Part shown: in pieces, positions 46,031-64,000 of the stretch | Position numbering within the stretch: position 1 is the first letter of the stretch | Layout: each line of letters opens with the position of its first letter | Source of the DNA: Thermoanaerobaculia bacterium | GTDB lineage: Bacteria > Acidobacteriota > Thermoanaerobaculia > Gp7-AA8 | Length of the DNA stretch: 64,000 bases | Assembly: GCA_035627015.1 (NCBI GenBank) | Contig: DASPMO010000054.1 | Coordinates: forward strand, 32,136-96,135 | Reading direction: 5' to 3' | Made by a program: the position numbers and the translations under genes | The notes under the pieces: model-generated | The model's database searches: none | Seen by the model: only the letters and a program-made list of their open reading frames with translations | What the model was told of the DNA's origin: nothing

Positions 46031-46119
46031 CAGGATGACAGGTTGCCTGAGTTCTGGGATTTCTCTGGGACGTGACGGCGCGGGGATGACGGGGGGCGGA
46101 CCCCTGGTTTTCACAGGGC

Positions 46120-47677: not shown

Positions 47678-48730
47678 ATGGCGGTCATCGTCGTCCTGTT
47701 GTACGGGACGATGTGGGTCGGCGCGATCGTCGAGCTCCGCGACGCCCGCGACCGGCCCGTCACCATCGCCGGCGGCGAGCACACCGAGCCGGCCGCCCCT
47801 CCCCCCAGCCCGATGGAGAGCATCACCCGCTCGGTGAGCCCGGCCGTACCGAAGCCGGCGTACCTCTCCGACGCCATGCTCGGTTTCCTCCATCCGCTTC
47901 GCGGGCTCAGCGGCGACCTCCGCTATGCGCCGGCGCTTCCCGGCTCGCGGCTCGTGCAGTCGGTCCCCGGCGGCGCGACCGCGGTCATCGCCGGCAGTCC
48001 GGCCGACTTCCGGGCGCCGTCGAAGCCCGGCATCTACAGCTTCGCGGTGAAGATCCAACAGGCCCAGCGCCCGATCGAGGACATCAGCATCGTCACGCTC
48101 GTACCGCGCGCCCAGAAGAAGGCAGGGAAGATCGGCACGTATCAACTCGGCACGTGGCCGTTCGAGCGCGGCGGCACCCCCCGCTCCCCGCGCTACGCGG
48201 CGCCGCCCGGATTCATCCAGGTCACGCGCGACAACCAGGACTTCCAGGTCTCCGAGCATTTCCGGATCAAGCAGTTCCTGACCAAGGACCAGTTCAACGT
48301 CTGGCCGAAGTACGTGTTCATCGACCCGCTCCTGATCGACAAGCTGGAGCTGACCATCCAGGAGTTGAAGAAGGAAGGGGTGCGCGTGGAGCACGTGCAC
48401 GTCATGAGCGGCTTCCGCACGCCGCGCTACAACTCCGGCGGCGGCAACACGTCGGGACGGGCGAACCTGAGCCGGCACATGTACGGCGACGGCGCGGACG
48501 TCTACGTCGACAACAACCGCGACGGCCAGCCGGACGACATCACCGGCGACGGGCGCGTGACGGTCAGGGACGCGGAGAAATTCGCCGCCGCGGCCGAGCG
48601 CGTGGAGAAGAAGCACCGCACGCTCGTGGGCGGGATCGGAATCTACGTCGCGTGCTGCGGGCACGGACCTTTCACACACATCGACGTGCGCGGCTCCCGC
48701 GCCCGCTGGCGCGGGTCGGGCTCCGGCTGA
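47678..48730 (+). CDS. Peptidase M15A / DUF882 family protein (MepK/YcbK-like peptidoglycan LD-endopeptidase candidate), membrane-anchored
   Basis: N-terminal TM MAVIVVLLYGTMWVGAIV. C-terminal SGFRTPRYNSGGGNTSGRANLSRHMYGDGADVYV matches the SGYRxPxxNxxxGGxxxSxHxxGxAxD signature. Alternative GTG start at 47579. Confidence 0.6.
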   Translation: MAVIVVLLYGTMWVGAIVELRDARDRPVTIAGGEHTEPAAPPPSPMESITRSVSPAVPKPAYLSDAMLGFLHPLRGLSGDLRYAPALPGSRLVQSVPGGATAVIAGSPADFRAPSKPGIYSFAVKIQQAQRPIEDISIVTLVPRAQKKAGKIGTYQLGTWPFERGGTPRSPRYAAPPGFIQVTRDNQDFQVSEHFRIKQFLTKDQFNVWPKYVFIDPLLIDKLELTIQELKKEGVRVEHVHVMSGFRTPRYNSGGGNTSGRANLSRHMYGDGADVYVDNNRDGQPDDITGDGRVTVRDAEKFAAAAERVEKKHRTLVGGIGIYVACCGHGPFTHIDVRGSRARWRGSGSG

Positions 48731-48746
48731 TTCGAAGGAGGTAGAG

Positions 48747-49187
48747 GTGGCTACAGAGATTACATGCCCCGAATGTCAGAGCAGGCGAACCGACCCGTCG
48801 GTGGTCTGCCCGACGTGCGGCGCCCCGCCGGTACGCGAGGGGGACAAGCGCACCCTCGAAGAGGAAGTGCGCTCCCAGGACCTCGAGCCGTACATCACGC
48901 TTCGCTACATCGCCCGGCTGTTCAAGGTGCTGGCGGTGCTGATGGTGGTCATGCTGATCGGCGAGATCATCGCCGGCCTCTCCACCGATGCCTCGGAGGC
49001 CTTGCCGACGCTGATCGGCGAGGTGACGCAGATGCTCGTGCTGGCGGGACTGATGTGGGGCGGCGGCGACCTGACGCTGCTGGTGATCGACGCCGGCCAT
49101 GACCTGCGCGTGGCGCGCATCCTCCTCGGCCGCATCAACCACGAGCTGCACCGCCAGAACTCGGAAGACCGGAAAAAGTTGACGTAG
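48747..49187 (+). CDS. Zinc-ribbon / membrane hypothetical protein (146 aa)
   Basis: RBS GAAGGAGG. CPECQ...CPTCG N-terminus, hydrophobic middle. The stop TAG is supplied by the following REP (ACGTAGG). Confidence 0.5.
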   Translation: MATEITCPECQSRRTDPSVVCPTCGAPPVREGDKRTLEEEVRSQDLEPYITLRYIARLFKVLAVLMVVMLIGEIIAGLSTDASEALPTLIGEVTQMLVLAGLMWGGGDLTLLVIDAGHDLRVARILLGRINHELHRQNSEDRKKLT

Positions 49188-49210
49188 GGCGGGCTTCAGC
49201 CCGCCCGAAG
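49182..49210. repeat. Family-B REP hairpin
   Basis: GACGTAGGGCGGGCTTCAGCCCGCCCGAAG. Confidence 0.6.
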
Positions 49211-49621
49211 CAAAAATGAGTGTGAAGGCACTCAGAATCGATTGGCGCCGAGGAAACGCCGGCTGCGGCCGTGCTGCGGTTTGATGCGCCACGCTGAATG
49301 TTTGCTCGCTCGGCGCTGACGTTTGCTCCGCGCGTGCCGCGCGTTCATGGCGTCGAGATCGTTCCAGCTCGAGTCGCGCTGGACAAATGGAGCGAAGCTG
49401 CCCGGGAACAGCACAAGTCCATCAACTTGCAGCACGTCCCGGGCAGAATTTTGCTTTGAAACACCGCCGTCCAGCTGCCGGCGAGCTGGAAATCCCTCGG
49501 CGCCAGCAGGTGCCGGCTCGAAGTCATCATCCTTTTGCTCCGGCGGAACAAAAATTCAGCGCCGCCGAGCAAGAGACAGCAGTGGCGGCAATCCGCGAAT
49601 CTCGCGGCACCGTCCGTCTAG

Positions 49622-50104
49622 CTAGGTCTTCCCCATCAACTCGCGCTTGCGCGCTTCCATGCGCTCGCCGAGCTCGCGCAGCTCGTCGCGCTCCATCACC
49701 TGCCGCGCGCGCGGGAACATCTCTTTCTCCTCTTCCTCGGCGTGGTGCTCGACGAGCTCCTTGAGCACCTTTGCCTTGGCCTTCAGCTCTTCGTTGTTCG
49801 CGCCGCTGCCGGCCTCGGGGAGGAAGGTCTTCACGACGCCGTGCTCTTCGACGGCCTCGTAGTACATGGTCTGGTCGTCTTTCTTCCGCGCGGCCTCGCG
49901 CCAGGCGGGATAGAAGATCTCCTCCTCGATCGTGGTGTGGATCTGCAGCTCCTGCTCGATCTGGCCGAGGAGCTTCGTGCGCCGCGGGCCGGTGGCGCGC
50001 TCGAGCGAGTCGAGCAGGTCCATCACTTTCTTATGGTCTTCCTTGAGCAGCCCGATCGCGTCGGCCGGGGATTTCTTCTTCGCCGTCTTCTTCGTTGCAG
50101 CCAT
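49622..50104 (-). CDS. Hemerythrin HHE cation-binding domain protein
   Basis: LKEDHKKVMDLL...ELQIHTTIEEEIFYP...ELVEHHAEEEEKEMFP (H/E metal ligands). Confidence 0.8.
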   Translation of the reverse strand: MAATKKTAKKKSPADAIGLLKEDHKKVMDLLDSLERATGPRRTKLLGQIEQELQIHTTIEEEIFYPAWREAARKKDDQTMYYEAVEEHGVVKTFLPEAGSGANNEELKAKAKVLKELVEHHAEEEEKEMFPRARQVMERDELRELGERMEARKRELMGKT

Positions 50105-50149
50105 CTGTGATCCTCCGCGGCGCGAAGGATCACGATGCGTGCCCGCGGC

Positions 50150-50560
50150 TCAGACGATGGAGCGCGTAAGTGTCTCTTTCAGCTCGCGGTAGACGTTTTC
50201 GGGCGGGATCCCCAGCTCGCGGAAGCCGCCGGCGCGGCGGAAGAGCGTCTCCGCGGTCTTCTCGTCGAAGGTCACGTTGCGGTTGTTCAGCTCACAGAAG
50301 GCGAGGAGCGACGCCAGCGCCACCCGGCGATTGCCGCCGCGGAACGGGCGCGCCTGCAGCAGCGCGAAGACGAAGGCCGCCGCTTTGTCGGAGAAGGTCG
50401 GATAGGCCTCGCGTCCGAGAGTCGTGATCTGCGGGCGCTGGACGGCGTTCATCAGTCCGAACTGCGACTCCACCACGCCGGGATGCGCCTGGTTGCCGCC
50501 GAACTCCGCACAGACCGCCCGGTGCAGGTCGACCACGTCCTGCACGGTGAGATAGCGCAC
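50150..50560 (-). CDS. Doc/Fic-family (death-on-curing-like) toxin domain protein
   Basis: 136 aa from a GTG start. ...QARPFRGGNRRVALA resembles the Doc motif HxFxDGNKR. 7 nt downstream of the Lys-rich ORF. Confidence 0.65.
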   Translation of the reverse strand: MRYLTVQDVVDLHRAVCAEFGGNQAHPGVVESQFGLMNAVQRPQITTLGREAYPTFSDKAAAFVFALLQARPFRGGNRRVALASLLAFCELNNRNVTFDEKTAETLFRRAGGFRELGIPPENVYRELKETLTRSIV

Positions 50561-50567
50561 GCCCGCG

Positions 50568-50921
50568 TCAGTCGGTGAGCTTGCGGAAAGCGTTGGGGTA
50601 CTTCTTGACGGCGTGCTTGAAGGCGTTGGCGACGGCGGGGTTGGAGAAGGAGCCGCCGGCTTCGGCTGGGCCTTTGGCGGACTTGCCGCCGCCGCCTTCT
50701 TTGCCGGCGGGGGCGCCGTTGCCTTTTTCGGTTCCGGCTTTTTTGATGCTGATTTTGCCGCTTTCGGCTTTGGCAGCGCCCGCAGGAGCGCCTTTGCTGC
50801 CGCCTTTACCCGCGGCGCTTTGGCTGCCGCCTTCTTTGGTGGGGCTGCTGCTTTTTTTGACTGCTGAGGTCTGGCTGCTTTTGCCGCCGGTTTTGGCTTT
50901 TGCTTTGTCGCCATGCGTCAT
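50568..50921 (-). CDS. Lys/Ala/Gly-rich intrinsically disordered protein (histone-H1-like tail), putative partner of the Doc-like toxin
   Basis: RBS GAGGA 5 nt before ATG. MTHGDKAKAKTGGKSSQTSAVKK...NPAVANAFKHAVKKYPNAFRKLTD. The alternative reading is a single 254-aa fusion in another frame. Confidence 0.45.
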   Translation of the reverse strand: MTHGDKAKAKTGGKSSQTSAVKKSSSPTKEGGSQSAAGKGGSKGAPAGAAKAESGKISIKKAGTEKGNGAPAGKEGGGGKSAKGPAEAGGSFSNPAVANAFKHAVKKYPNAFRKLTD

Positions 50922-51086
50922 CTGCGTCCTCAGGCCGTCAGTTTAACTCTGTTAAGTCCTTGAGTCAACGGAGGTTACGCCTGAGTCATGAAATGACCCG
51001 CCAAAATCGGAAAGCGAGCGGGAAGCGTAAGTCACTGAAAAGGTGCAGGTTAAAGCAAACCATTACCTGCACTGAATTTTGTGCAA

Positions 51087-51392
51087 TCAGACGCCGTCCG
51101 CGTCGGGATTCGCGGCTGCCGAGGCTGCGGCGTCGCTCGTTCCTTCCACCAGAGGCGTCGCCTCGATAGCCAGAAAGTCCGTGGCCGAGGGGGCCAGGGT
51201 GTAGCCCTCCTCGCCGGCGACGAGGAAGCCCTTGCCCACCAGCGACACGGCCGGCTTCTCCCCGACCGCCCCCACGGGATGCTTGATGGCCTTGATCGTG
51301 TCGAGCGGCAGCGTCTGGGCGTTCAGGCGGCGGAACTCCTGGAGCACGCGAATCTCCTCGGAGGAGAGGCCAAGCGGAAGGTGGATTGCCAT
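51087..51392 (-). CDS. Hypothetical small protein (101 aa)
   Basis: Clean ORF directly abutting family-A element copy 3. Confidence 0.4.
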   Translation of the reverse strand: MAIHLPLGLSSEEIRVLQEFRRLNAQTLPLDTIKAIKHPVGAVGEKPAVSLVGKGFLVAGEEGYTLAPSATDFLAIEATPLVEGTSDAAASAAANPDADGV

Positions 51393-51397
51393 GGCGG

Positions 51398-51528
51398 GAG
51401 ATTAATGTATGGAGTGCGCGAGCGCCAGCTCGCGCTCTCGATGCGGGAGGCGCCAGCCTCCCGCCCCCCGGCGCAGCTGGCGCTGCGGCATAGAGAGCGC
51501 GAGCTGGCGCTCGCGCACTCCAGATCAG
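51398..51528. repeat. Family-A palindromic element, copy 3
   Basis: GTATGGAGTGCGCGAGCGCCAGCTCGCGCTCTCGATGCGGGAGGCGCCAGCCTCCCG...GCGAGCTGGCGCTCGCGCACTCCAGATC. Confidence 0.6.
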
Positions 51529-52316
51529 GGCTGGCACCTGGGGCACCAGTAGGTTCCCCGCGCGTCCTTGCCCTGTTTGGCGTACTCGATCGGCGTGCCG
51601 CAGCGCCGGCAGGGTTTGCGGCCGCGGCTGTAGACGTACTGCTTCTGGCTCGGGTCGAGGCTGAAGGTGGTGATGCGGGCGGGGGAGCGTTTCTGGATGT
51701 TGGCCAGCATCACCTTCCGGGAGAGCTTGAGGATCGTGTCGAGCTGTTCGTCGGTGAGGTCGCGCACTTTCGCGAACGGGCTGACCCGCGACATGAACAG
51801 CAGCTCGCTCTTGTACTCGTTGCCGATGCCGGAGACGACGCGCTGGTTGAGGAGCACGTCGGCGATCTCTTCGTCGGGCCGGGCGCGGATGCGGCGCACG
51901 GCCTCTTCCTGGTCGAACGTCTCGCCGAGAAAGTCGGGGCCGATGTTCAGGAGGTCGTCCTGCCGCTCCAGCGAGCGGGAGTCGTGCATCTCCGCCACCG
52001 GGACGTTGAACGCCACCGCCACCCAGGCGTCGGTCTCGAGGATGATGCGCATGTCGCTGAAGCGCTTCCGCCACCGCTCGCCCGGCTTGTAGAGGTGCCA
52101 CGAGCCGTTCATGCGCATGTGCGTGCGCAGGTGGAGGTCGCCGGAGAAGTGCATGAGCAGGTTCTTTCCGGCGGCGTCGACGCGCTCGACGGTGCGGCCG
52201 GTCATCTCCACGCGCGCGAGCTGCGGGAAGACGGTCTCGAAGCGGAGGATGGTGCGTCCCGCCAGCGCCGCGTGCAGGGTGCGCGCGGCGCGGTGGATGG
52301 TATCGCCCTCAGGCAT
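51525..52316 (-). CDS. Fpg/Nei-family DNA glycosylase (formamidopyrimidine-DNA glycosylase / endonuclease VIII-like)
   Basis: N-terminal MPEGDTIH (catalytic Pro2/Glu3). C-terminal zinc finger CRRCG...CPRCQ. Its start overlaps the lhr stop by 8 bp. Confidence 0.85.
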   Translation of the reverse strand: MPEGDTIHRAARTLHAALAGRTILRFETVFPQLARVEMTGRTVERVDAAGKNLLMHFSGDLHLRTHMRMNGSWHLYKPGERWRKRFSDMRIILETDAWVAVAFNVPVAEMHDSRSLERQDDLLNIGPDFLGETFDQEEAVRRIRARPDEEIADVLLNQRVVSGIGNEYKSELLFMSRVSPFAKVRDLTDEQLDTILKLSRKVMLANIQKRSPARITTFSLDPSQKQYVYSRGRKPCRRCGTPIEYAKQGKDARGTYWCPRCQP

Positions 52317-55300
52317 GCCTGGCCCGCAACTGCATCCCCATGGCCGTGGCCACGAATCCTTCTTCCGCCAGGAACGGCGCCAGCGCCGAGCGCGACGCCG
52401 GCTCGTCGTTGACTTCGGCCACGAGCAGCGCCCGCCGCCCTCCTTCATGGACGAGCGCTGCCAGCGTCTTCGCGATCTCCCTCCCGACCATGGACCGCGT
52501 CGGCTCGTCGTCGGGGAGGAAGACGTAGAACTGCTTCTCGCCGCGCGAGACGTAGCAGGCCATGAGGCCGTTCACGAGGATGACCTCGGCGCCGACGCTG
52601 CGGGAGAGCATCCAGCTCGACTCCGGCCACTTCACGATCGCGCCGTACGGATTGGCCGGGTCGGTGGCGGCCAGCCGGACCGTCTCCGGCGCCTCCGGCT
52701 CGTCTTTCAGGGCGCGCAGGAGGTCGATCGCGCCGCCGCTGGCGAACTGCGTCGCGCCGAGGCCGGCCACGAAGTAGCCGCGGCGGATGCGTCCCGCGTC
52801 TTCCATGCCGCGGAGCACGGGATAGACGGCGGAAAAGCCGCCGAAGATGTTCTCCAGCGCCGGCGCCTCCCGCGTGACCAGGCCGTAGCGCGACAGCAAC
52901 TGCTGCGCGAGCGCCGCGGCGCGCTGCGTGTCGTTGGCGTTCCCCGACGGGACGAGCGACCAGCGTCCCTGCGTCGACGCCGGCGCCACGCGCCGCGAGC
53001 GGAAGCCGCTCGTGCGCGTCGACTTCGGCCGCGTGTAGGCGCGCAGCGCGTGGAAGGTGTCGTTCGTGACCACCCCCTTCCAGACCAGGTCCCAGAGCGC
53101 GTCCGTCAGCTCCGCCGGGAAGCCGCCGAGCGCTCCCTGCATGAGATTGAAGAAGGAGGCGCCGTGCGCGCGAAGGTAGTCCACCACCGAGTCCCCTCTC
53201 CCCTCGGGGGAGAGGGGAGGGTGAGGGGCGAGCAGCGGCAAATGATCCGTCAGATACAACGCGATCCGCCCGTCGCGCTCTCCCAGCGGCTCCACCCCCA
53301 CCCACACGATCTCCCCCGCGGCCGAAAGCGTGTCGAGGTCCGACGACTTGTAGTCGACGATGCGCGCGGCGAGGATCTCGCTCTCGAAGATCGACGCCGC
53401 CATCGGGAAGCCCTGCAGCGTCTCGATCACTTCCAAGAGGGCGTCGAGGCCGCGGCGCTTGCGGGTGACGCTCTGCCAGTTGGCGAAGAGGCGCGCCAGC
53501 ACCGGCTGGTCGACTGGCTCCGCCTCCTTGCGCAGCTTGGCCAGCGACCGGCGGCGGATGGTGCGCAGTACGTCCTGCTCGCACCACTCGCGCTGCGTGC
53601 CGTTCGGGCGGAACTCCCCCTCGATGAGGCGGCCGCGCTCGACGAACCGCTCCAGCGTCAGCGTGACCACCGCCACGCCGAGGCCGTAGCGGCGGGCCAC
53701 GTCGTTCGGCACGAACGGGCCGTGCGTGCGCGCAAAGCGGAGGACGAGATCGCCGACCGCGTCCTGCACCGGCTGCAGGTAGCGCTCGGCCACGCCGTGG
53801 GGGATGGGGGTACCGAGGGCGTCGCGGTAGCGCGAGGCGTCCTCGACGGCGATGTAGCGCTTTTCCTTCGCCACGGTGACCTCGAGGATGCGGCGCGTTT
53901 TCACGAGCTCACGTAGGACGGGCTTCAGCCCGTCTGGTCGGGCTGAAGCCCGACCTGCGTCGAGCGCACTTCGCGCTTCGATTTCTTCTTCCGAGAGGTC
54001 GCCCAGCCGGAGTAAGAGGTCGTGGATCGCATCCGCGTTCTTCGCCTTATGCCGCTCGTCGAGGTGCTGCAGCTCGAGCTCCATCTGCGCCAGCGAGTCG
54101 GGGTCGAGCAGCTCGCGCAGCTCCGGCTCGCCGAGGAGCTCGCGGAGCTGCGACTGGTCGATGGCCAGTGCCTGCGCGCGGCGCTCGGCCAGCGGCGCGT
54201 CGCCGTCGTAGAGGAAGTTGGCCACGTAGCGGAAGAGCACCGAGGCGGCGAACGGCGACGGCTTGAGCGTATCGGCGGTGTGCACGCGGATCGTGCGCTG
54301 GCGGATCTTCTTCGTCAGCTCGACGAGGGCCGGCACGTCGAAGACGTCGCGCAGCGTTTCGCGGTACGTCTCCAGGATGATCGGGAACGAGCCGAAGCGT
54401 GCCGCCACCTGCAGCAGGTCGTAGGCGCGCTTGCGCTGCTGCCAGAGCGGCGTGCGTCCCTGGATGCGGGTGCGCGGCAGGAGCAGCGCGCGGGCCGCGG
54501 CCTCGCGGAACTTCGCGGCGAACATCGAGCTGGCCCCGAGCTGGCGGAGCAGGAGCTGCTCCACTTCATCGGGATCGGGGAGGACCAGGTCGACGTTCGG
54601 CGGGTGGTCGGTCTCGGGGAAGCGCACGATGAAGCCGTCGTCGCTCCACATCGTCTCGACGTCGATGGCCATCTCGTTGCGCACCTTCGCCGTCACGGCC
54701 ATGGCCCACGGCGCGTGGATCTTGCCGCCGAACGGCGAGAGGACGCAGACGCGCCAGTCGCCCAGCTCGTCGACCACGCGCTCGACGACGATGGTGCGGT
54801 CGTCGGGGACCGCGCCCGTGGCCTCCTGCTGGTCCATCAGATATTGAAGGAAGTTCTCCGCGGCCCGCTCGTCGAGATCGTGTCTCTTCACCAGCCGCTG
54901 GATCGCGGCGGCGCGCGGCGTCTCGCGGATCTCGCGCACGAGCTTCCCGATGGCCTCGCCGAAGGGGACCGTGCGCTCCGCGGAGTCGGCCTTCCAGAAC
55001 GGCATCTTCCCCGGCTGCCCCGGCGCGGGGGTGACGATGACCTTATCGTGGGTGATCTCCTCGATGCGCCACGTCGAGGCGCCGAGGACGAACGTCTCCC
55101 CGGGAGAGGTCTCGAAGACCATCTCTTCATCGAGCTCGCCGACGCGCGCGGACTGGTTCTTCTCCGTGCCGGCCAGGAAGACGCCGTACAGCCCGCGGTC
55201 GGGGATCGTGCCGCCGCTGGTGATGGCGATGCGCTTCGCCCCCTGCCGCGCGGTGAGCGTGTTGGCCACGCGGTCCCAGGTGATGCGCGGGCGGAGCTCC

Positions 55301-56793
55301 GCGAATTCGTCGGAGGGATAGAGGCCGGAGAGCATGTCCAGCACGCCGTCGAACGACGTGCGCGTCAGCTCGGCGAACGGCGCGGCGGTGCGCACGAGGT
55401 TGTAGAGATCGTCGACCGACCAGGCGTCCATGGCCACCATGGCCACGATGTGCTGGGCCAGGACGTCGAGCGGGTTGCGCGGATAGCGCGTCGGCTCGAT
55501 GGCGCCGGTGTGCATGGCCTCGGCCACGGCGGCGCAGGCCACCAGGTCGCCGCGGAACTTCGGGAAGATGATCCCGCTCGACTCCGCGCCCACCTGATGG
55601 CTGGCCCGTCCGATGCGCTGCATCCCGGAGGCGATGGACGGCGGCGCCTCGATCTGGATCACCAGGTCGATGGCGCCCATGTCGATGCCCAGCTCCAGCG
55701 ACGACGTGGCCACCAGCGCCGGGAGGCGTCCCGACTTCAGCGCGTCCTCGATCTCGGTGCGGTGGGCCCGGGCGATGGAGCCGTGATGCGCGTGCACGAG
55801 CGTCTCGCCGGCGAGCTCGTTCAGCGCGCCGGCCAGCCGCTCCGCCAGGCGGCGCGAGTTCACGAAGATGAGCGTCGACGTGTGCGCTTTGATCAGCTCG
55901 AGGAGGCGCGGGTGGATGGCCGGCCAGATCGACGTCCCCTTCGGTCCGGCGGAAGCGGGACCGCTCGTGATCTCCAGCGTCTCGCCGAGGCGGGCCATGT
56001 CTTCCACCGGCACTTCGACCTTCAGCGTCAGCTTTTTCTTCTCGCCGGTGTCGATGATGGACGTAGGGCGGGCTTCAGCCCGCCCCTCCCCGGGGGGACG
56101 GGCTGAAGCCCGTCCTACGTCGTACCCCCCCAGGAACCGCGCCACCTCTTCCAGCGGCCGCTGCGTGGCCGAGAGACCGATCCGCTGCGGCGGCTTCTCG
56201 CAGCGCGCGGTCAGGCGCTCGATCGAGAGGGCCATGTGCGCGCCGCGCTTGTTCGGCACCAGGGCGTGGATCTCGTCGATGACGATCGTCTCCACCCCCT
56301 GCAGTACCTCGCGCGCGTTGGAGGTCATCATCAGATACAGCGACTCGGGGGTGGTGATGAGGATGTCGGCCGGCTCGCGGGCGAAGCGGGCCCGCTCGGA
56401 CTGCGGCGTGTCGCCGGTGCGGATGGCGATCTCGGGGATGACGTACTCGTCGCCGCGCTGGGCGGCCACGTTGGAGATGCCGATCAGCGGCGCGCGGAGG
56501 TTGCGCTCCACGTCCACGGCCAGTGCCTTGAGCGGCGAGACGTACAGCACGCGGCAGCGGCGCTCCTTGGGCGGGCGCGGCGTGAACATCAGCCGGTCGA
56601 GCGCCCAGAGGAACGCGGTGAGCGTTTTTCCACTCCCTGTAGGGGCGAAGATCAGCGTGTGCTCGCCGCGGGAAATGGCCGGCCAGCCGAGTTGCTGCGC
56701 GCGCGTCGGGGAGGGGAACGAAGCCGTAAACCATTCCCGTACGGCGGGATGGAACGGCTCGAGACCTGTCGTCGAACTTTTTTTACGAAGCAT
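52309..56793 (-). CDS. lhr: Lhr-family ATP-dependent DNA helicase (about 1495 aa) carrying two in-frame family-B REP insertions
   Basis: APTGSGKT (motif I), VIDEIH (DExH), LSATQ, the large C-terminal Lhr extension. The REP peptides GRASARPPGEGRAEARPTS and GRASARPDGLKPVL lie in inter-motif loops. Confidence 0.9.
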   Translation of the reverse strand: MLRKKSSTTGLEPFHPAVREWFTASFPSPTRAQQLGWPAISRGEHTLIFAPTGSGKTLTAFLWALDRLMFTPRPPKERRCRVLYVSPLKALAVDVERNLRAPLIGISNVAAQRGDEYVIPEIAIRTGDTPQSERARFAREPADILITTPESLYLMMTSNAREVLQGVETIVIDEIHALVPNKRGAHMALSIERLTARCEKPPQRIGLSATQRPLEEVARFLGGYDVGRASARPPGEGRAEARPTSIIDTGEKKKLTLKVEVPVEDMARLGETLEITSGPASAGPKGTSIWPAIHPRLLELIKAHTSTLIFVNSRRLAERLAGALNELAGETLVHAHHGSIARAHRTEIEDALKSGRLPALVATSSLELGIDMGAIDLVIQIEAPPSIASGMQRIGRASHQVGAESSGIIFPKFRGDLVACAAVAEAMHTGAIEPTRYPRNPLDVLAQHIVAMVAMDAWSVDDLYNLVRTAAPFAELTRTSFDGVLDMLSGLYPSDEFAELRPRITWDRVANTLTARQGAKRIAITSGGTIPDRGLYGVFLAGTEKNQSARVGELDEEMVFETSPGETFVLGASTWRIEEITHDKVIVTPAPGQPGKMPFWKADSAERTVPFGEAIGKLVREIRETPRAAAIQRLVKRHDLDERAAENFLQYLMDQQEATGAVPDDRTIVVERVVDELGDWRVCVLSPFGGKIHAPWAMAVTAKVRNEMAIDVETMWSDDGFIVRFPETDHPPNVDLVLPDPDEVEQLLLRQLGASSMFAAKFREAAARALLLPRTRIQGRTPLWQQRKRAYDLLQVAARFGSFPIILETYRETLRDVFDVPALVELTKKIRQRTIRVHTADTLKPSPFAASVLFRYVANFLYDGDAPLAERRAQALAIDQSQLRELLGEPELRELLDPDSLAQMELELQHLDERHKAKNADAIHDLLLRLGDLSEEEIEARSALDAGRASARPDGLKPVLRELVKTRRILEVTVAKEKRYIAVEDASRYRDALGTPIPHGVAERYLQPVQDAVGDLVLRFARTHGPFVPNDVARRYGLGVAVVTLTLERFVERGRLIEGEFRPNGTQREWCEQDVLRTIRRRSLAKLRKEAEPVDQPVLARLFANWQSVTRKRRGLDALLEVIETLQGFPMAASIFESEILAARIVDYKSSDLDTLSAAGEIVWVGVEPLGERDGRIALYLTDHLPLLAPHPPLSPEGRGDSVVDYLRAHGASFFNLMQGALGGFPAELTDALWDLVWKGVVTNDTFHALRAYTRPKSTRTSGFRSRRVAPASTQGRWSLVPSGNANDTQRAAALAQQLLSRYGLVTREAPALENIFGGFSAVYPVLRGMEDAGRIRRGYFVAGLGATQFASGGAIDLLRALKDEPEAPETVRLAATDPANPYGAIVKWPESSWMLSRSVGAEVILVNGLMACYVSRGEKQFYVFLPDDEPTRSMVGREIAKTLAALVHEGGRRALLVAEVNDEPASRSALAPFLAEEGFVATAMGMQLRARHA
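53910..53962. repeat. Family-B REP hairpin pair inside lhr
   Basis: CACGTAGGACGGGCTTCAGCCCGTCTGGTCGGGCTGAAGCCCGACCTGCGT. Confidence 0.7.
56060..56120. repeat. Family-B REP hairpin pair inside lhr
   Basis: GACGTAGGGCGGGCTTCAGCCCGCCCCTCCCCGGGGGGACGGGCTGAAGCCCGTCCTACGT. Confidence 0.7.
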
Positions 56794-56882
56794 GTGAGCG
56801 CCGTCACGCCGCTGGACTTTCCGGCGCGACGACTGCAAGAATAGTGAACAGCCCCCAGCGCAAGAGAGTGAAGGAATGGGAG

Positions 56883-57647
56883 ATGCGGCTCAAGGTACTC
56901 GGCGCGTACGGCGCGTCCGATGCTGAACATAATCTGACCGGGTACCTGATCGACGACTGGTTCGCGGTGGATGCCGGCACTCTCACGTCGAAGCTGTCAT
57001 TTGCGCAACAGTCACGCGTGCAAGCCGTTTTCATCACGCATCCGCACGCCGACCACATCCGCGACCTGCCGCACCTGATCCACAACCGCTTCTCGCAGCC
57101 GACCCAGCCATTGACGATCTTTGCCGCCAAGGACGTGCTCGAGCTGCTGGTGCGCGACGTCTTCAACGGCATCGTCTGGCCGGACTTTTCCGAGATCGTC
57201 TCGCCGATCAACAACAAGCCCGCCGTGCAGTACCGCGCCCTGAACCCGGGGAAGCGCATCGTCTTCAACGACGTCGGCATCACCGCGGTGCCGGTCGATC
57301 ACCAGATCCCCGCGTCGGGTGTGCTCCTGGAGATCAACGGCCAGTCGATCGTCTTCACCGGCGACACCGGCCCGACCCAGGAGATCTGGAAGCGGACGAA
57401 CAAGATGCAGAACGTGGTGGCGGTGGTGACGGAGGCGTCGTTCCCGAACGACCAGCAGTCGCTGGCCGACGAGACCGCCCACCTCTCGCCGAATACCTTC
57501 GGCGAGGAGCTGAAGAAGATCACCGTCGACGCCCCCGTCTACGCCAGCCACCGCAAGATCCCGTTCGAGCGCGACATCGAGTCGCAGATCCGGAATCTGC
57601 GGGACCGGCGGGCGCGGGTGCTGCTCGAGAAGAACTACACGCTGTAG
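56883..57647 (+). CDS. MBL-fold metallo-hydrolase, class-II 3',5'-cyclic-nucleotide phosphodiesterase-like
   Basis: MRLKVLGAYGAS...AVDAGT...FITHPHADH (HxHxDH)...VFTGDTG. Confidence 0.65.
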   Translation: MRLKVLGAYGASDAEHNLTGYLIDDWFAVDAGTLTSKLSFAQQSRVQAVFITHPHADHIRDLPHLIHNRFSQPTQPLTIFAAKDVLELLVRDVFNGIVWPDFSEIVSPINNKPAVQYRALNPGKRIVFNDVGITAVPVDHQIPASGVLLEINGQSIVFTGDTGPTQEIWKRTNKMQNVVAVVTEASFPNDQQSLADETAHLSPNTFGEELKKITVDAPVYASHRKIPFERDIESQIRNLRDRRARVLLEKNYTL

Positions 57648-57780
57648 GCTCATAGGTACATAGGCTCACAGGCTCACAGGAGAGCCCTATGAGCCTATGA
57701 GCCTGTGCGCCTATGAGCCTATGAGCCTATGAACCTATGAGCCTATGAGCCTATGAGCCTATGCGCCTGTGCGCCTCAGT
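57645..57780. repeat. Octamer inverted array C: (CTCAyAGG)x4 ... (CCTATGAG)x~10
   Basis: Same 8-bp unit as arrays A and B. Sits between convergent gene ends. Confidence 0.7.
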
Positions 57781-59740
57781 TCACCCCCAGCTCCCGATAG
57801 ATCGCCTTCGGATCGAACACCTTCCCATCCTTCACCACCCGCACGACCCGCCGGATCTCCGAGATGTTCCTCGTCGGATCCCCATCCACGATGATGAAGT
57901 CCGCGAGCTTCCCCGGCTCGATCGTCCCGAGGTCCGCCTCGCGCTCGAGCACCTGCGCGGGGACGAGCGTGGCGATGCGCAGCACCTCGGCCGGCGGGAT
58001 GCCGGCGCGGACGTAGTTCTCCAGCTCGCGGTGCAGGGCGAAGCCGGCCAGGCCGTCCGTCCCCGCCACGATGGTCACGCCGCTGCGATGCAGCTCCGCG
58101 ACGAGATCGAGCATGCGCTGGTACGACGCGCGGTAGCGCTCGTCCATCCCCTCCGGCACGGGAAGCCCCCCCGCCAGGAACCAGCGCCGCACCTGCGGCG
58201 GCACGCGCTCCGCGATCATCGCGTACGACGGCTCGAGCTCTCCCTTGCGCGCGGTGAACATCCCCTCGAAGACCGTCATCGTCGGATCGACGACGATCTT
58301 TCGGCTCCGCAGTTTCTCGATGAACGCCCGCACTTCGGGCGACTGCAGGTCGAGGTCCGCGCCGCGCTTGGCCGGCTCGGTGAAGCGCGCCGGCGTGCGC
58401 GTGTCCGTCACGTCCGGCATGAAGTTGAGGAAGAGCATATTGACGTGCTGGATCTCGTCGTAGCCGGCGTCGACCGCTTTCTCCGCGGTCATCCCCGCGG
58501 GGATGTGGCCGCTCACGCGCAGCCCTTTCTCGTGCGCGTAGCGCGTCAGGAACGGCACGAGCTCCGGCTTGATGGAGCTGTAGATCTTCAGCCCCTCGTA
58601 CTTGCGCGAGACGAGGAAGTCGATGGCCTTGCGCCCCTCCTCTTCCGTCGCCACGAGGAGGTTCGTCGGTCCCTGGAACGGCCCCGGCCCGTCGATCAGG
58701 CCGGCCAGCACGAGCCGCGGTCCGATGGCCTCGCCGGAGTCGTATTTGTCGCGCAGCGCGGTGACCGTGTCGCTGTCGTTGCCGAGGTCGCGGGCGGAGG
58801 TGATGCCGGCCGCGATGTTCAGCAGGCCGTCGGTGTCGCCGAGATGCCCGTGCATGTCCCAGAGGCCGGGGAGGAGCACGCCCCCCTTGGCGTCGATCAT
58901 CTCTCCGGCGCTGTACGGGCTGTCGCTGCCGACGCTGGCAATGCGGTTGCCCTGGGTGACGACGGTGGTCGGCTCGGAGAGCCTGCCCGTGCGCGGATCG
59001 AACACGCGCGCGTTCACGACGATGACCCGCACCGGGTTGCCGGTCAGCCGCTTCGCGATCTCCGCGGCGCGCGACCGCCCGCGTTCATCCTGCGCGTCGA
59101 TGAGCTGTTTCACGTCGCCCTCGAAGCCTTCGCGGATGGTCGAGCTCCACGACGAGACGAGGCCGAAGAAGTTGCGGTCGTCGTCGAGCCAGACCTCGTA
59201 CGGCGTGAAGCCGATGCCGGAGATCTCGTACGCGGTGACGTGCGTGCCGCGCAGCGTGGCCTCGCCGACCTTGCGGATCGACGCCTCGCCGCCGCCCTGC
59301 AGCGGCAGCTTGCCGCCCGCCATCAGCAGCGCGCGCGAGAGAATGCCCCACTCCTCGGGCGGCCCATACATGCTGGTGTACAGCGCGCCCGCCTTCCCTT
59401 CGCCCGTTTCCGCGGTGCTCTTCCAGGTCACGCGGTCGCCGGTGGTGGTGAGGCGCTCCTCGACCGGCGTCTTGAGGTAGTCGTTGCCGGTCGTGACCAC
59501 GGACACCGGCAGGCCGCGCGCGTCGGTGCGCACGACGGTGTGGGTCTTCGGCCCGCGCCCGCGGTCGTTGAACTCGTAGTCGACGATCGTCTCGTCGCCG
59601 CTCGTCGTCACGACCTGCGTGCCGGCCTTGTTGGTGCTCATCAGCACCGTGTAGCGGCGCGTCTCCTCGCGCGCGGGCTGGTGCGCGCACGCTGCAACGA
59701 GCAGGATTGCCAGCAGACTATTTCTTTTCGACATCCGCAT
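57776..59740 (-). CDS. Amidohydrolase-family metal-dependent hydrolase, lipoprotein/secreted
   Basis: Lipobox LLVAAC. LPGLWDMHGHL (HxH)...SGHIP...GTDG. Confidence 0.8.
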   Translation of the reverse strand: MRMSKRNSLLAILLVAACAHQPAREETRRYTVLMSTNKAGTQVVTTSGDETIVDYEFNDRGRGPKTHTVVRTDARGLPVSVVTTGNDYLKTPVEERLTTTGDRVTWKSTAETGEGKAGALYTSMYGPPEEWGILSRALLMAGGKLPLQGGGEASIRKVGEATLRGTHVTAYEISGIGFTPYEVWLDDDRNFFGLVSSWSSTIREGFEGDVKQLIDAQDERGRSRAAEIAKRLTGNPVRVIVVNARVFDPRTGRLSEPTTVVTQGNRIASVGSDSPYSAGEMIDAKGGVLLPGLWDMHGHLGDTDGLLNIAAGITSARDLGNDSDTVTALRDKYDSGEAIGPRLVLAGLIDGPGPFQGPTNLLVATEEEGRKAIDFLVSRKYEGLKIYSSIKPELVPFLTRYAHEKGLRVSGHIPAGMTAEKAVDAGYDEIQHVNMLFLNFMPDVTDTRTPARFTEPAKRGADLDLQSPEVRAFIEKLRSRKIVVDPTMTVFEGMFTARKGELEPSYAMIAERVPPQVRRWFLAGGLPVPEGMDERYRASYQRMLDLVAELHRSGVTIVAGTDGLAGFALHRELENYVRAGIPPAEVLRIATLVPAQVLEREADLGTIEPGKLADFIIVDGDPTRNISEIRRVVRVVKDGKVFDPKAIYRELGVN

Positions 59741-62060
59741 CCTCCCAATAGAACGACCTGTATCTGCCGCGCCGCACGCGGCCGGCGTGATCTTCGATCT
59801 CGACGTAGAGGCTCGTATCGTACGGAATGCGCGGCGGCTTGTCCGGGATGGTCAGCTCGAAGCCCGGTTTGTCATTGAGGTAGCGCTGCCACGGATACGA
59901 CGCCTGCACGTCGGGACGTGGCACGCGCTCCATCTCGAACCGGTACCGGCCGCTGTGCAGGACGACCGTGGCCCGGCGGATGCCGTGCGGCGACATGGCC
60001 CATCCCTTCACGGTGAGCGAGCCTTTGGCCAGGTAGAACCACCCCGGCTCCTCGGTGACGATCATGATGGCGTCGCTGTGCGTCGGCTGCAGCGTCAGGA
60101 AACGCTGCAGGGTCTGCGACGGGAGATGTCCGGCCCCGTTCGGCACCTCGGCCATCCGGTAGCGCTGCCACTGCGGCAGGTTCCGGGTGATGGCGAAGAC
60201 GTAGTCGCCGACGATCTCGTTGTCGAAGCGCTGCAGGAACTGCAGGCGCCCCGTGGCCAGGTTGCGCTTCAGGAAGTCGACGAGCTTCAGGTAGCGCTCC
60301 CCCTGGAGCGAGTCGCCGTGCACGATCATGAGGCGCGCGCCGTAGCCTTCGAGCAGGCCGAGCATTTCGTCGTATGCGTCGCGCACCTCGGCGTCGCGCA
60401 GCTTCCAGAATTCGGGCGGGAAGAAGCCCGACGTGCCGTTGACGAGCATCACCCGGTGGGTCGCGGAGTGGAGCACGTAGCGGTAGTCGACGCCGTCGCC
60501 GCTGAACGGCATCTCCACGACCGGGCCGACGCGCGTCTTGTTCAGCCACGCGTAGACGGGAGGCGTCTCGGGAGGCACGTGCTCCCAGCGCAGCCGCGGC
60601 ACGACTTCCCACGTCATGAAGGCGAGGATGGCCACCGCGATCGCATGCTTCTTCCATCCCTTGCGGTCCCGCAGCAGCGCCGAGGCGCCGAGCGCGCCCC
60701 ACACGGCCAGCCCGACGTACGCCACGATGGCGAACCGCGCCGCCACGCGCATGGCCTGGAACGGCTCGAAACGCCGATAAAAGAAGATGTAGAGGAAGTT
60801 GTTCGCCCCGAGCGACCCGAAGATCCCGATGGCGATCCACACCGCCGCCGCCCACGCGCCCGGATTGAACCGCGACCGCGCCGCCGCGTCGCGCAGCGCC
60901 GGCGCGAAGCGCAGCACCGCCGCCCCCAGCGCCATCATCAGCGGAATGTCGGAGCTGTCCGCCGAGAAAATCCTCACCCCGAACACGGTCAACGCATACC
61001 GCTCGCTGACCGCCCCCGCCCACCCGATCGCCAGCCCGATGAAAATCAATGCATCCAGTGCCAAACGTAGGGCGGGCTTCAGCCCGCCTCCCTCGTGGCC
61101 GGGGGTCGGGCTGAAGCCCGACCTGCGTTGCGTCGCCACGATCCCGATCAACGCCAGAAACACGATCCCCAGCCCCGGAAACAACTGCTTCTCCGCCGCA
61201 TACATCTCCCCCCGCGGCACCCGCCCATACGCGCGGTTGATCGACGTCGGCACCAGCCAGTTCCGCCACGACGCCGACCCGTCGCGCACCTGATCGAAGC
61301 TGCGCACGTACTGGTAGTGTTTCGACACCACGCGATACGGCTGCAGGAAGGGATAGAGCAGGATCCCCGCGGCGAGGACGCTCGCGGCGAGCCCGAGGTA
61401 AAACTTCCACGGCCGCGGCGCGATCACCGCCAGCGCCACCACGGTGAACAGCACCGCCACGCCGCAGAACAGCAGGAAGTAGATGTTCGTCAGCCCGTTG
61501 GCGACGATGGCCAGCGCCAGCAGCGCCCCCCGCTTCCAGTTGGCGCGCTCCCAGAACGCCAGCAGCGCCGCCAGCAGCAGCGGAGGCCACGGGCTGAACA
61601 CGATCTGCAGGTGCGGCAGGTGGTCGAACTTGAACGAGCAGAAGGCGAAGAAGATCCCGCCCGCCAGCGCCCCGACGGTGCTCCCCGACACCCTCCGCGC
61701 CAGCACCCACGCGCCGTAGCCCGACAGCGCGAAGCCGAGGATGAAGGCAATGTTGTAGACCTGGATGGCGCTCAGTCCCGCGAGGAAGAACGGCATCACC
61801 ACGACGGCGACGGCGAAGAGGTTCTCGCTGTACGCGAACGGCAGGATGCCGGGGTGAAAGATCGGCGCGTCGTACAGGCGCAGCGGCTGGTGGGTGAGGG
61901 CGTAGCAGGCCCAGTCGAGGATGAACGCGTTCAGCAGCGGGTCGCCGAAATCCGACACGGCGCTGTCGAGATGCGCCGCCAGCGGCCACGTCAATGCGAC
62001 GGCCAGGACGATGAAGAACAGCAGCGCGGCAAGCTCGCGGACGATCGGTTTGTGGCGCAA
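59718..62060 (-). CDS. Large polytopic membrane protein, putative GT-C-type glycosyltransferase-like (ArnT/PMT/YfhO-like topology) with an in-frame family-B REP
   Basis: 780 aa. N-terminal AVSDFGDPLLNAFILDW loop followed by >12 TM helices and a C-terminal soluble domain. The REP peptide RRSGFSPTPGHEGGGLKPALRLA sits inside. Confidence 0.55.
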   Translation of the reverse strand: MRHKPIVRELAALLFFIVLAVALTWPLAAHLDSAVSDFGDPLLNAFILDWACYALTHQPLRLYDAPIFHPGILPFAYSENLFAVAVVVMPFFLAGLSAIQVYNIAFILGFALSGYGAWVLARRVSGSTVGALAGGIFFAFCSFKFDHLPHLQIVFSPWPPLLLAALLAFWERANWKRGALLALAIVANGLTNIYFLLFCGVAVLFTVVALAVIAPRPWKFYLGLAASVLAAGILLYPFLQPYRVVSKHYQYVRSFDQVRDGSASWRNWLVPTSINRAYGRVPRGEMYAAEKQLFPGLGIVFLALIGIVATQRRSGFSPTPGHEGGGLKPALRLALDALIFIGLAIGWAGAVSERYALTVFGVRIFSADSSDIPLMMALGAAVLRFAPALRDAAARSRFNPGAWAAAVWIAIGIFGSLGANNFLYIFFYRRFEPFQAMRVAARFAIVAYVGLAVWGALGASALLRDRKGWKKHAIAVAILAFMTWEVVPRLRWEHVPPETPPVYAWLNKTRVGPVVEMPFSGDGVDYRYVLHSATHRVMLVNGTSGFFPPEFWKLRDAEVRDAYDEMLGLLEGYGARLMIVHGDSLQGERYLKLVDFLKRNLATGRLQFLQRFDNEIVGDYVFAITRNLPQWQRYRMAEVPNGAGHLPSQTLQRFLTLQPTHSDAIMIVTEEPGWFYLAKGSLTVKGWAMSPHGIRRATVVLHSGRYRFEMERVPRPDVQASYPWQRYLNDKPGFELTIPDKPPRIPYDTSLYVEIEDHAGRVRRGRYRSFYWEDADVEKK
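61065..61130. repeat. Family-B REP hairpin pair, intragenic and in-frame
   Basis: CAAACGTAGGGCGGGCTTCAGCCCGCCTCCCTCGTGGCCGGGGGTCGGGCTGAAGCCCGACCTGCGTT. Confidence 0.7.
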
Positions 62061-62087
62061 GACGTGGGGATTCTAGAATGCCCGGCC

Positions 62088-62927
62088 ATGTCCCGCCCGC
62101 CGGTCTCTGTGATCATTCACACGCTCAACGAGATCGAGCAGATCGAGGAGTGCCTCCGCACCGTCGAGTGGGCGGACGAGATCTACCTCGTCGATTCCCT
62201 CTCCACCGACGGCACCGTGCCCCGCGTGCGCGAGCGGTTCCCGAAGGCGCGCATCGAAGAGCGCCCGTACCTCGGCGCCGCGGCCACGAAGAACTACGCC
62301 ATCGACCGCGCCGCCAACGACTGGATCTTCGTCATCGACGCCGACGAGCGCGTCACGCCGCAGCTCCGCGACGAGATCCTGCGCACGCTGGAGGGGCCGC
62401 TCGACCGCTGGGCCTACTCCGTCGGCCGCCGCAATTTCATGCTCGGGAAGGAAGTGCGCTTCAGCGGCCTGCAGCGCGACCGCGTCACGCGTCTCTTCCA
62501 CCGCGGCCACGCGCGCTATCCCAACAAGCGCGTGCACGCGGACCTCATCGTCGACGGCGCGACCGCCGACCTGCGCCACAAGATGCTGCACTACTACATC
62601 CGCAGCTTCGACCACATGATCGGCAAGATGACGCGCTACGCGAACTGGGGCGCCGCGCAGATGTTCATCGACGGCAAGACCACCGGCGTGTGGGGCATCT
62701 TCAGCCATCCCTTCGGCAAGTTCGTCCGCGACTACATCCTCAACCTTGGCTTCCTCGACGGCGCGCGCGGCCTGATCTCCGTCGGCATGCACGTCTACTA
62801 CACGTTCTGGAAGTACGCGAAGCTGTGGGAGCTCCAGCAGCTCAAGCGCCTCGGCAAGCCGGTGCCGTTGCCGGAGCTGGACAAAGAGGAAGAGCGGTGG
62901 GAGCTGCCGTGGCTGAAGAAAACGTAG
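62088..62927 (+). CDS. Family-2 glycosyltransferase
   Basis: VSVIIHTLNE...YLVDSLSTDGT...VIDADE (DxD) GT2 signature. The stop TAG is supplied by the REP (ACGTAGG). Confidence 0.8.
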   Translation: MSRPPVSVIIHTLNEIEQIEECLRTVEWADEIYLVDSLSTDGTVPRVRERFPKARIEERPYLGAAATKNYAIDRAANDWIFVIDADERVTPQLRDEILRTLEGPLDRWAYSVGRRNFMLGKEVRFSGLQRDRVTRLFHRGHARYPNKRVHADLIVDGATADLRHKMLHYYIRSFDHMIGKMTRYANWGAAQMFIDGKTTGVWGIFSHPFGKFVRDYILNLGFLDGARGLISVGMHVYYTFWKYAKLWELQQLKRLGKPVPLPELDKEEERWELPWLKKT

Positions 62928-62988
62928 GTCGGGCTTCAGCCCGACCAGCCGGCTTCAGCCCAGCCGGGCTGAAGCCCGGCCTACGTTT
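62922..62988. repeat. Family-B REP hairpin pair shared by convergent genes (supplies both stop codons)
   Basis: AACGTAGGTCGGGCTTCAGCCCGACCAGCCGGCTTCAGCCCAGCCGGGCTGAAGCCCGGCCTACGTTT. TAG at 62925-62927 (+ gene) and CTA at 62981-62983 (- gene). Confidence 0.7.
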
Positions 62989-64000
62989 CCGCCTTCTCCA
63001 CGATCACCCGCAGCCCCTCCACCCCCCGCACGCGCACGCGTGATCCCGCCGCGATCTCGCCGTTCGCGCTGGCGTTCCACAGCTCGCCGTGCACGAACAC
63101 CTTTCCGTCCGGCCCGAGCGGCGTGCGGGCGATGCCGATCTCGCCGATCATCGCCTCGACGCCGCTGGCGACCGGGTTCTTGTGCGCGCGCAGGACGAGC
63201 GTCATCAGGAAGACCGCGATGATGCCGATCGGCACGCTGACCACGAGCGCCGTCAGCAGCTTCACGCGCATCTCCGGAATGGGGCCGTCCACGAGCATCA
63301 GGGCGCCGAGGATCATGCAGATCACACCGCCTGCACCGAGGATGCCGTAGGAGGTGAACTTCGCCTCGGCGGCGAAGAGGATGAACGCCACGAGGATCAG
63401 CGCGAAGGCCGCGAAACGCGTCGGCAGCAGGTTCAGCGCGAAGACTGCCAGCACGATGGCGATCAGCCCGACCACGCCGGGGAGGATGGCCCCGGGATGG
63501 TTGAACTCCGCCCACAGCGCCAGCATGCCGAGGGACATCAGGATGAAGGCTACGTTCGGATCCATGATCCACGACAGCAGCTGCTGGCGCAGCGTCATGT
63601 CGTAGTCGACGATCGGCTTGTTGGCCAGGCGCAGCACGCTCTTCGTCCCGTTGAAGCGGCGGATCGTTTTCCCGTCGGCCCAGCGCAGCAGCGACGGCAC
63701 GTCGGCCGCCACGACTTCGATGAGCTTCAGCGCCAGCGCCTCGTCTTCGGTGAAGGACTTCGCCTCGCGCACGCCGCTCTCGGCCGCGGCCACGTTGCGT
63801 CCGCGGCGCTGGGCGATGCTGCGCATGAACGCCGCGGCGTCGTTCTGCAGCTTCATCTTCATGATCTCGTCGATCTTCTCGCCGCCGATCGTGACCGGGT
63901 GCGCTGCGCCGGTATTCGTCCCCGGCGCCATGGCCGCGACGTCCGCCGCCTCGAGGATGAAGAAGCCTGCCGACGCCGCGCGCGCCCCGCTCGGCCCGAC
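62981..64000 (-). CDS. NfeD-family membrane-bound ClpP-class protease/OB-fold protein (5' end beyond window)
   Basis: ...GTNTGAAHPV... ClpP-like region, 4-5 TM helices, C-terminal OB (KVFVHGELWNA). The frame stays open to the window end. Confidence 0.65.
   Translation of the reverse strand, partial: VGPSGARAASAGFFILEAADVAAMAPGTNTGAAHPVTIGGEKIDEIMKMKLQNDAAAFMRSIAQRRGRNVAAAESGVREAKSFTEDEALALKLIEVVAADVPSLLRWADGKTIRRFNGTKSVLRLANKPIVDYDMTLRQQLLSWIMDPNVAFILMSLGMLALWAEFNHPGAILPGVVGLIAIVLAVFALNLLPTRFAAFALILVAFILFAAEAKFTSYGILGAGGVICMILGALMLVDGPIPEMRVKLLTALVVSVPIGIIAVFLMTLVLRAHKNPVASGVEAMIGEIGIARTPLGPDGKVFVHGELWNASANGEIAAGSRVRVRGVEGLRVIVEKAET

Follow-up and report, generated by a model that had tools for sequence, protein, structure and literature searches.

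At the end of the window (the whole 64-kb stretch of Thermoanaerobaculia DNA analyzed here), a GT2 gene on the plus strand and an NfeD gene on the minus strand converge on a palindromic element with an outward-facing head at either end, and each gene takes its stop codon from the head that it reaches. In the GC3 frame plot, the plus-strand gene enters TAG 62925-62927 and the minus-strand gene enters CTA 62981-62983. Pfam searches confirmed both gene assignments as well as those of the plsC acyltransferase and VWA genes elsewhere in the window, with the C-terminal domain of NfeD ending at residue 313 of 316. The computed RNA fold of 62922-62986 amounts to -53.5 kcal/mol on the plus strand and -60.4 kcal/mol on the minus strand (z about -8). 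The element belongs to a repeat family, referred to here as family B, for which a regular-expression census of the window returned 18 units, 10 of them forward and 8 reverse, distributed over 10 loci. These loci, the stop codons located in them and one decayed head are as follows:

62922-62986: dimer, heads outward, separating the converging GT2 and NfeD genes; it comprises a forward unit (62922-62946), a partial extra unit (approximately 62950-62961), and a reverse unit (62962-62986)
62925-62927, plus strand: TAG stop codon for GT2 (62088-62927, 279 aa), contained in the ACGTAGG of the left head
62981-62983, minus strand: TAG stop codon for NfeD, read as CTA on the plus strand and contained in the right head; this minus-strand gene extends from 62981 past the end of the window and encodes 421 aa in relatives
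3540-3631: dimer, heads outward, with a 48-nt spacer; its right head supplies the plsC TAG
3626-3628, minus strand: TAG stop of plsC (3626-4345)
5389-5465, minus strand: dimer, heads inward, in frame in a conserved gene for a small membrane protein (5268-5702, 144 aa)
35219-35286, minus strand: dimer with a tandemly duplicated head (18 nt), in frame in a YfhO-like gene (34160-36535), peptide GRASARPDGLKPVLRLAPVLRLAPV
37967-37991, minus strand: single unit, in frame in a paralogous YfhO-like gene (36629-38737), peptide GLKPDLR
47493-47544: dimer, the first base of which is the A of the VWA stop TGA (47491-47493)
49182-49206, plus strand: single unit, the TAG of which (49185-49187) stops a 146-aa gene (48747-49187)
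49622-49627, minus strand: decayed head, CTAGGT for CTACGT; its codons ACC-TAG end a hemerythrin gene (49622-50104)
53911-53960, minus strand: dimer, in frame in the Lhr helicase gene (52309-56793), between DEAD_assoc and WH2, peptide DAGRASARPDGLKPVLR
56061-56120, minus strand: dimer, in frame in Lhr, between DEAD and Helicase_C, peptide DVGRASARPPGEGRAEARPT
61065-61128, minus strand: dimer, in frame in the gene 59718-62060, where it falls in a loop of the DUF6311-like membrane protein, peptide RRSGFSPTPGHEGGGLKPALR

The family-B unit, ACGTAGG-N-CGGGCTTCAGCCCG-N'-C (n = 18 at the 10 loci; full consensus (AC)GTAGG-N-CGGGC-TTCA-GCCCG-N'-C(C)), is 25 nt long and consists of a 7-bp stem with a 4-nt TTCA loop and an unpaired GTAG head, the head sitting 5' of the stem GNCGGGC/GCCCGN'C and outside the unit's own stem. 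The head reads GTAGG in 16 of the 18 units and GCAGG in the other 2, and the variable stem pair N/N' is Watson-Crick in 17/17 window units, with 4 pair types represented. Inverted pairs account for 8 of the 10 loci, with spacers of about 1 to 48 nt (counts for this window only). ACGTAGG occurs 16 times in the window (G+C = 67.9%) against 2.8 occurrences expected from dinucleotide-preserving shuffles, none of which reached 16; for GGGCTTCAGCCC, with 1 mismatch allowed, there are 21 occurrences where 0.58 would be expected. The computed RNA hairpins of the dimers range from -47 to -60 kcal/mol (z -5.5 to -9), and that of a single unit has -20.7 kcal/mol. The ACG-TAG frame of the unit is closed and the 2 remaining frames are open, and the same holds for the opposite strand; in the dimer, the closed frame is interrupted by the head TAG and again by a TGA in the second loop, and the open frames translate into RRSGFSPTRRAEARPT and VGRASARPDGLKPVLR. 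A scan of the window against Rfam at gathering thresholds gave no match to family B, the sole match being a tRNA gene (25692-25762, minus strand); thus, the element is not a curated RNA family.

Orthologs with 81-100% identity carry source names that place the organism in Thermoanaerobaculia (Acidobacteriota). The same unit is found in other phyla. A scan with GTAGGNCGGGCTTCAGCCCG, limited to one genome per species, recovered it at at least 116 loci in Alpha-, Beta-, and Gammaproteobacteria, Verrucomicrobiota, Nitrospirota, Planctomycetota, Armatimonadota, and other Thermoanaerobaculia. Of the 145 units from other phyla, 136 have a Watson-Crick pair at the variable stem position, and the AC ahead of GTAG is not conserved there, being a local extension. 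To the window and the 180 loci fetched in all, we applied tblastn with 3 sequences of the REP-associated tyrosine transposase (RAYT), one of them an E. coli RayT sequence that was used solely as a probe, the matches of which were verified with PDB 4ER8 and Pfam. Matches were confined to proteobacterial loci (L102, L105, L099, and L093). In L102 (Aestuariivita) and L105, family-B-type units flank, in inverted orientation, a gene matching the E. coli TnpA-REP structure, PDB 4ER8 (E = 4e-38 and E = 7.5e-12, respectively), and the L105 gene also matches Pfam Y1_Tnp with 28.3 bits against a cut-off of 23. Within the L102 RAYT itself, an in-frame REP dimer forms a 33-residue insert relative to PDB 4ER8. 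The tblastn search detected no RAYT gene in the window or in approximately 0.4 Mb of related Thermoanaerobaculia DNA, so that we infer, rather than observe, the transposase link in this genome. Based on the flanking of RAYT genes in L102 and L105 and on the near-identity to the RAYT-linked REPs described by Nunvar et al. 2010 (PMC2817692), namely GTAGGGTGGGCTTCAGCCCACC in H. influenzae and GTAGGTCGGCCTTCAGGCCGAC in Thioalkalivibrio, family B is, judged by its sequence, a GTAG-tagged REP that occurs mostly as inverted pairs (REPINs).

According to the initial annotation, the ACGTAGG arm contains the terminal TAG of the GT2, NfeD, plsC, and 146-aa genes, and the element begins at the TGA of the VWA gene; all the coordinates were verified, with the A of this TGA being the first base of ACGTAGG. 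The plsC gene ends ...acg ctg ACG TAG, the 146-aa gene ...ttg ACG TAG, and the VWA gene ccg TGA. The hemerythrin gene, which ends aag-ACC-TAG in the decayed head, is an additional, sixth case. Because the element's ACG precedes all 4 donated stops, each of these proteins has a C-terminal Thr. In the contig's public annotation, plsC (239 aa) and VWA (457 aa) have identical ends (100% matches, P0241 and P0121). The TAG is in frame in 4 of the 5 intact heads that face gene 3' ends, a weak statistic (P = 0.045, with a chance of 1/3 per head); with the decayed head at 49622-49627 counted, 5 of 6 heads are in frame (P = 0.018), the orthologous sites in relatives not being independent observations for this purpose. 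In other phyla, the TAG is in the ORF's frame for 18 of the 33 heads that are preceded by a coding-like ORF (P = 0.01), and the proteobacterial RAYT genes of L102 (299-930) and L105 (1833-2346) both have as their stop the TAG in the head of a flanking REP. The stops of the 42 putative genes of the window comprise 27 TGA, 10 TAG, and 5 TAA codons, and family B supplies 5 of the 10 TAG.

Syntenic contigs fetched from relatives with 85-98% protein identity allowed us to compare alleles that have the element with alleles that lack it. For the GT2/NfeD junction, the alleles are:

L121: element absent, stops overlapping as CTAG; GT2 ends in KKTS, NfeD in AAD
L119: element absent, stops overlapping as TTAA; GT2 ends in KKN, NfeD in RAD
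L122: unrelated 113-nt spacer, separate stops; GT2 ends in KRTS, NfeD in RAD
L118: dimer as in the window; GT2 ends in KKTQT, NfeD in KET
L117: 2 heads retained, with a different 130-nt palindrome nested between them; GT2 ends in KKT, NfeD in SAET
L120: right head changed from CCTACGT to CCTCCGT; GT2 ends in KKT, NfeD in AETEARLQPGGSG
Window: dimer plus the partial extra unit; GT2 ends in KKT, NfeD in KAET

In L120, translation of NfeD continues for 10 further codons past the mutated head, to a TGA in the hairpin loop, and this read-through after the head mutation identifies the TAG of the head as a working stop. At the site between the 146-aa and hemerythrin genes, the 2 proteins end in KKAAAG and MGK, both at TGA, in the REP-less L125, and in KKLT and GKT in the REP-bearing alleles; in L123, the dimer is intact and stops both convergent genes. 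In the window, the decayed head is parted from its former partner unit by a 415-nt insert. This segment (49207-49621), which splits the REP dimer between the 2 genes, is unique and has a lower G+C content (61%); it is absent from L123-L126, and searches gave no match in the fetched loci, no convincing ORF, and no Rfam hit. For plsC, a metagenome scan gave distant relatives only (at most 77% identity), with variable tails, and closer REP-less orthologs came from a protein search: they end in AVAALA (L179, TGA) and AVLAQG (L180, TAA), and the window protein ends in AVAAMSTLT. The VWA protein ends in YFP in all relatives. The REP-less alleles of relatives have native stops; where the element is present, its TAGs now serve as stops. 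The proposal that the element sits in gene 3' ends and replaces both the native C-termini and the native stops is borne out for the stops and goes too far for the C-termini, the changes in which are tiny: compared with REP-less orthologs, the difference is about 1 residue in GT2 (KKTS or KKN to KKT), NfeD (AD to AET), and hemerythrin (GK to GKT), plsC has gained 3 residues, and VWA is unchanged.

A neighbour-joining tree (10.7 kb) has the topology ((L121,L122),L120),((L119,window),L117). The carriers at the GT2/NfeD junction (the window, L118, L117, and L120) are not monophyletic, so that gain, loss, and recombination at this junction are not separable, and the tree does not settle the polarity. 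That NfeD ends in AD in every allele lacking the REP suggests absence as the ancestral condition here. The family-B junctions differ from the REP-less alleles by a few extra bases, and among the junctions compared with relatives, we found no target-site duplication and no clean pair of empty and filled sites.

Other palindromes also lie at gene ends or between genes. Arrays of palindromic 8-mers (TAGGCTCA / CAGGCTCA) are located at 57645-57776, 38729-38844, and 39290-39365, and this second repeat family donates a stop as well, the array's first TAG, at 57645-57647, ending the gene 56844-57647. An intergenic palindromic family, TGGAGTGCG..AGCGCCAGCT..GCGC.., is found at 152-263 and 51410-51522 and also just past the stop at 31509, with one copy positioned directly after a TAG stop. 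At 45951-46030, there is a perfect 26-nt inverted repeat, AGCCGCGTAGACGGCGAAGGATCCCC, with an internal GTAG of its own; the 130-nt palindrome between the REP heads at the GT2/NfeD junction of L117 (10841-10971) is a member of this family. The gene 39405-42290 is followed, right behind its stop, by an array (42303-42475) of CGCGTGTGTCCCGCGGGAAACACG-type inverted repeats. Immediately behind the VWA stop, where the window has a family-B copy, L123, L125, and L126 carry 3 other hairpins.

The initial view of gene 3' ends as the insertion site fits several gene ends and does not extend to the rest of the family: 6 of the 10 loci are in frame within genes (2 in the full-length Lhr and 1 each in the 2 YfhO-like paralogs, the DUF6311-like gene, and the small membrane-protein gene), and gene 3' ends are thus not a special target. 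This fraction is unusually high for an "extragenic" element. In-frame intragenic copies persist because only the ACG-TAG frame is closed and the other 2 are open. They encode loop peptides rich in Gly, Arg, Ala, Ser, and Pro, as exemplified by GRASARPPGEGRAEARPT in Lhr. Relatives are without the intragenic inserts of the window or have fewer units. Six relatives lack the 56061 copy in Lhr, which corresponds to a 17-residue gap opposite the Lhr of M. smegmatis (PDB 7LHL), and the small membrane protein has 0 units in L179 (118 aa), 1 in L180 (129 aa), and 2 in the window (144 aa). L119 was also considered for comparison with the 53911 copy, as a clean empty site, but Lhr is frameshifted there (approximately 1880-1900 of L119), which makes the site unusable; the frameshift may be an assembly error or mark a pseudogene.

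Several further observations concern the intragenic sites. The 18-nt tandem duplication in the YfhO-like gene (35219-35254) includes the REP head, with GGGTGCCAAACGTAGGAC present twice, and remains in frame, so that LRLAPV occurs twice in the protein. At the Lhr site of the window's 56061 copy, L124 has an in-frame 90-nt GAGTCGTC-repeat palindrome (approximately 20700-20800). At the 53911 site of Lhr, the REP is absent from L120, L121, and L126, in which CCGTCCTAT is found 3 times in tandem, encoding the peptide SVLSVPSVLS; the tandem CCGTCCTAT resembles the CCGTCCTACGT end of the REP and could be a remnant, a target, or a coincidence.

Collectively, the presence or absence of the element varies among close relatives, a 3'-end copy in the ACG-TAG frame ends its gene with a Thr-stop, and, where two convergent genes had overlapping native stops, a heads-out dimer stops both of them. 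We consider it likely that family B is a GTAG-tagged REP, mostly in REPIN form, which is spread in trans by a RAYT, and that the excess of in-frame TAGs arises by selection. Copies would be made in trans by the transposase and would land regardless of genes, and the survivors would be those insertions that either end the gene at once or stay open in a tolerant loop. In a genome with almost no intergenic space, selection, not targeting, would then lie behind the in-frame TAG excess. Survival where the gene is ended at once is supported by the 18 of 33 in-frame heads in other phyla and by both RAYT genes ending at a REP TAG.

Alternatively, insertion could be targeted, with the element and other palindromes integrating at stop codons, existing hairpins, or head-like strings, so that the use of TAG would be part of the mechanism. 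Consistent with such targeting, a single nucleotide position is occupied by different palindromes depending on the relative (4 kinds after the VWA stop and 2 at the GT2/NfeD junction), a single Lhr codon position holds either the REP or the GAGTCGTC-repeat palindrome of 90 nt, and head-like strings are present at REP-less sites (CGTCCTAG in L121, GACGTC in L117, and the 3 CCGTCCTAT copies at the Lhr site of L120, L121, and L126). However, the sites concerned are a handful, too small a sample for a decision, other REP-less sites are unlike the head (TTAA in L119 and TGACGCCCGCC in L125), the intragenic sites contain no stop codons, and the head-like strings are equally explicable as remnants of deleted elements. 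We regard targeted insertion as unlikely. The finding of unrelated palindromes at one position, be it after a stop codon, at a zero-length convergent junction, or at one Lhr codon position, also brings up the tentative and somewhat doubtful idea that the palindromic repeats of this lineage turn over at fixed "landing pads," the GTAG head being a portable Thr-stop cassette for junctions without intergenic DNA. If so, existing hairpins or head-like strings would be the insertion targets, or a hairpin would be functionally required at these positions.

The initial annotation further suggested that the element doubles as a bidirectional terminator. That the hairpins are native bidirectional terminators which evolved in place, the overlap with stops merely following from a compact genome, appears very improbable. 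The hairpins are strong and present at every copy, and there is always some hairpin after the VWA stop: the relatives have unrelated hairpins at exactly that spot, which weakly favours some role for a 3' hairpin. A U-rich tail accompanies the minus-strand side of the 62922 copy, at 62927-62946; it is absent from the plus strand and from the other copies in the scanned region (46000-64000), and most copies are without a U-tract. Equally strong hairpins are translated through inside Lhr and 4 other genes. In addition, near-identical copies reside at unrelated loci and, at 6 loci, inside ORFs, close relatives differ in whether they have the element, and the unit is found across phyla and linked to RAYT genes. 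On the preferred reading of a REP spread in trans, the long RNA hairpin would probably be a 3'-end stabiliser or weak attenuator, not a classical terminator. Finally, a MITE of a DDE transposon, with ACGTAGG as the terminal inverted repeat and the palindromic ACGT as a 4-bp target-site duplication, would agree with the dimers being bounded by ACGT...ACGT and with the GACGTC at the empty Lhr site of L117, but is scarcely credible and was rejected, as the flanks contain no target-site duplication and the ACGT travels with the head of each unit, being on the head side only in the single units at 37967 and 49182 and facing the internal spacer, not the outside, in the heads-in dimer 5389-5465, the AC is not conserved in other phyla, and family-B-type units flank RAYT genes.

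For annotation, these results mean that in REP-rich, high-GC genomes like this Thermoanaerobaculia MAG, many TAG stops are repeat-derived (5 of 10 here) and many proteins have repeat-encoded loops, and gene callers and ortholog comparisons should expect C-termini that are off by 1 to 10 residues and in-frame inserts of 8 to 27 residues. With carrier alleles, REP-less alleles, and one read-through mutant, the locus provides a clean natural example of a selfish palindrome in a genome with almost no intergenic space. As a lineage-specific GTAG REP, both behaviours of which are known, family B opens no new question; the only features that might repay a genome-wide study are the large share of intragenic copies and what looks like palindromes turning over at fixed positions.

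Among known systems, E. coli REP/BIME elements share with family B a stable hairpin close to the stop of the upstream gene, whereas in family B the stop codon is inside the stem itself. Liang, Rudd, and Deutscher reportedly found (Molecular Cell, in 2015) that in E. coli a REP hairpin only a few nucleotides away from the stop causes ribosomes to stall at termination and reduces the amount of protein made. RAYT-associated REPs and REPINs are also said to have been treated by Bertels and Rainey in 2011. Compared with RAYT-associated REPs (PMC2817692), which include near-identical units in H. influenzae and Thioalkalivibrio, the genome with family B shows no RAYT in the 64 kb and the related fragments. 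Rickettsia palindromic elements (RPEs; Ogata et al. 2000, as cited in PMC3733652) are palindromic in-frame gene inserts encoding loop peptides of approximately 10 to 30 residues in proteins that appear intact; they differ from family B in being CGTC-tagged and AT-rich, in having no linked transposase, and in belonging to another sequence family. Family B carries neither the CGTC tag nor the RPE consensus, its tag being GTAG and its sequence unrelated, and only in-frame insertion is shared.

The GTAG-tagged REPs analyzed by Di Nocera, De Gregorio & Rocco 2013 (BMC Genomics 14:522, PMC3733652) have GTAG termini that donate TAG stops to flanking ORFs, and REPs were found within ORFs in several species, in many replication and repair genes and sometimes twice per gene. 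Both TAG donation and intragenic REPs were thus already described for GTAG REPs in 2013 (PMC3733652). Like family B, members of this superfamily have an unpaired GTAG, a G plus one variable base, a 5-9 bp stem, and a short loop, occur mostly as dimers after unidirectional or convergent ORFs, and are found in frame inside genes, notably those for DNA repair and helicases. Consistently, family B has its GTAG outside the stem, a short (20-40 bp) stem-loop with complementary variation, and interspersed inverted dimers. It differs from the superfamily in its host, a member of Thermoanaerobaculia (Acidobacteriota), in its high intragenic fraction (6 of 10 loci in this window), and in its head, which is extended to (R)ACGTAGG in this lineage, so that every donated stop arrives with a Thr codon.
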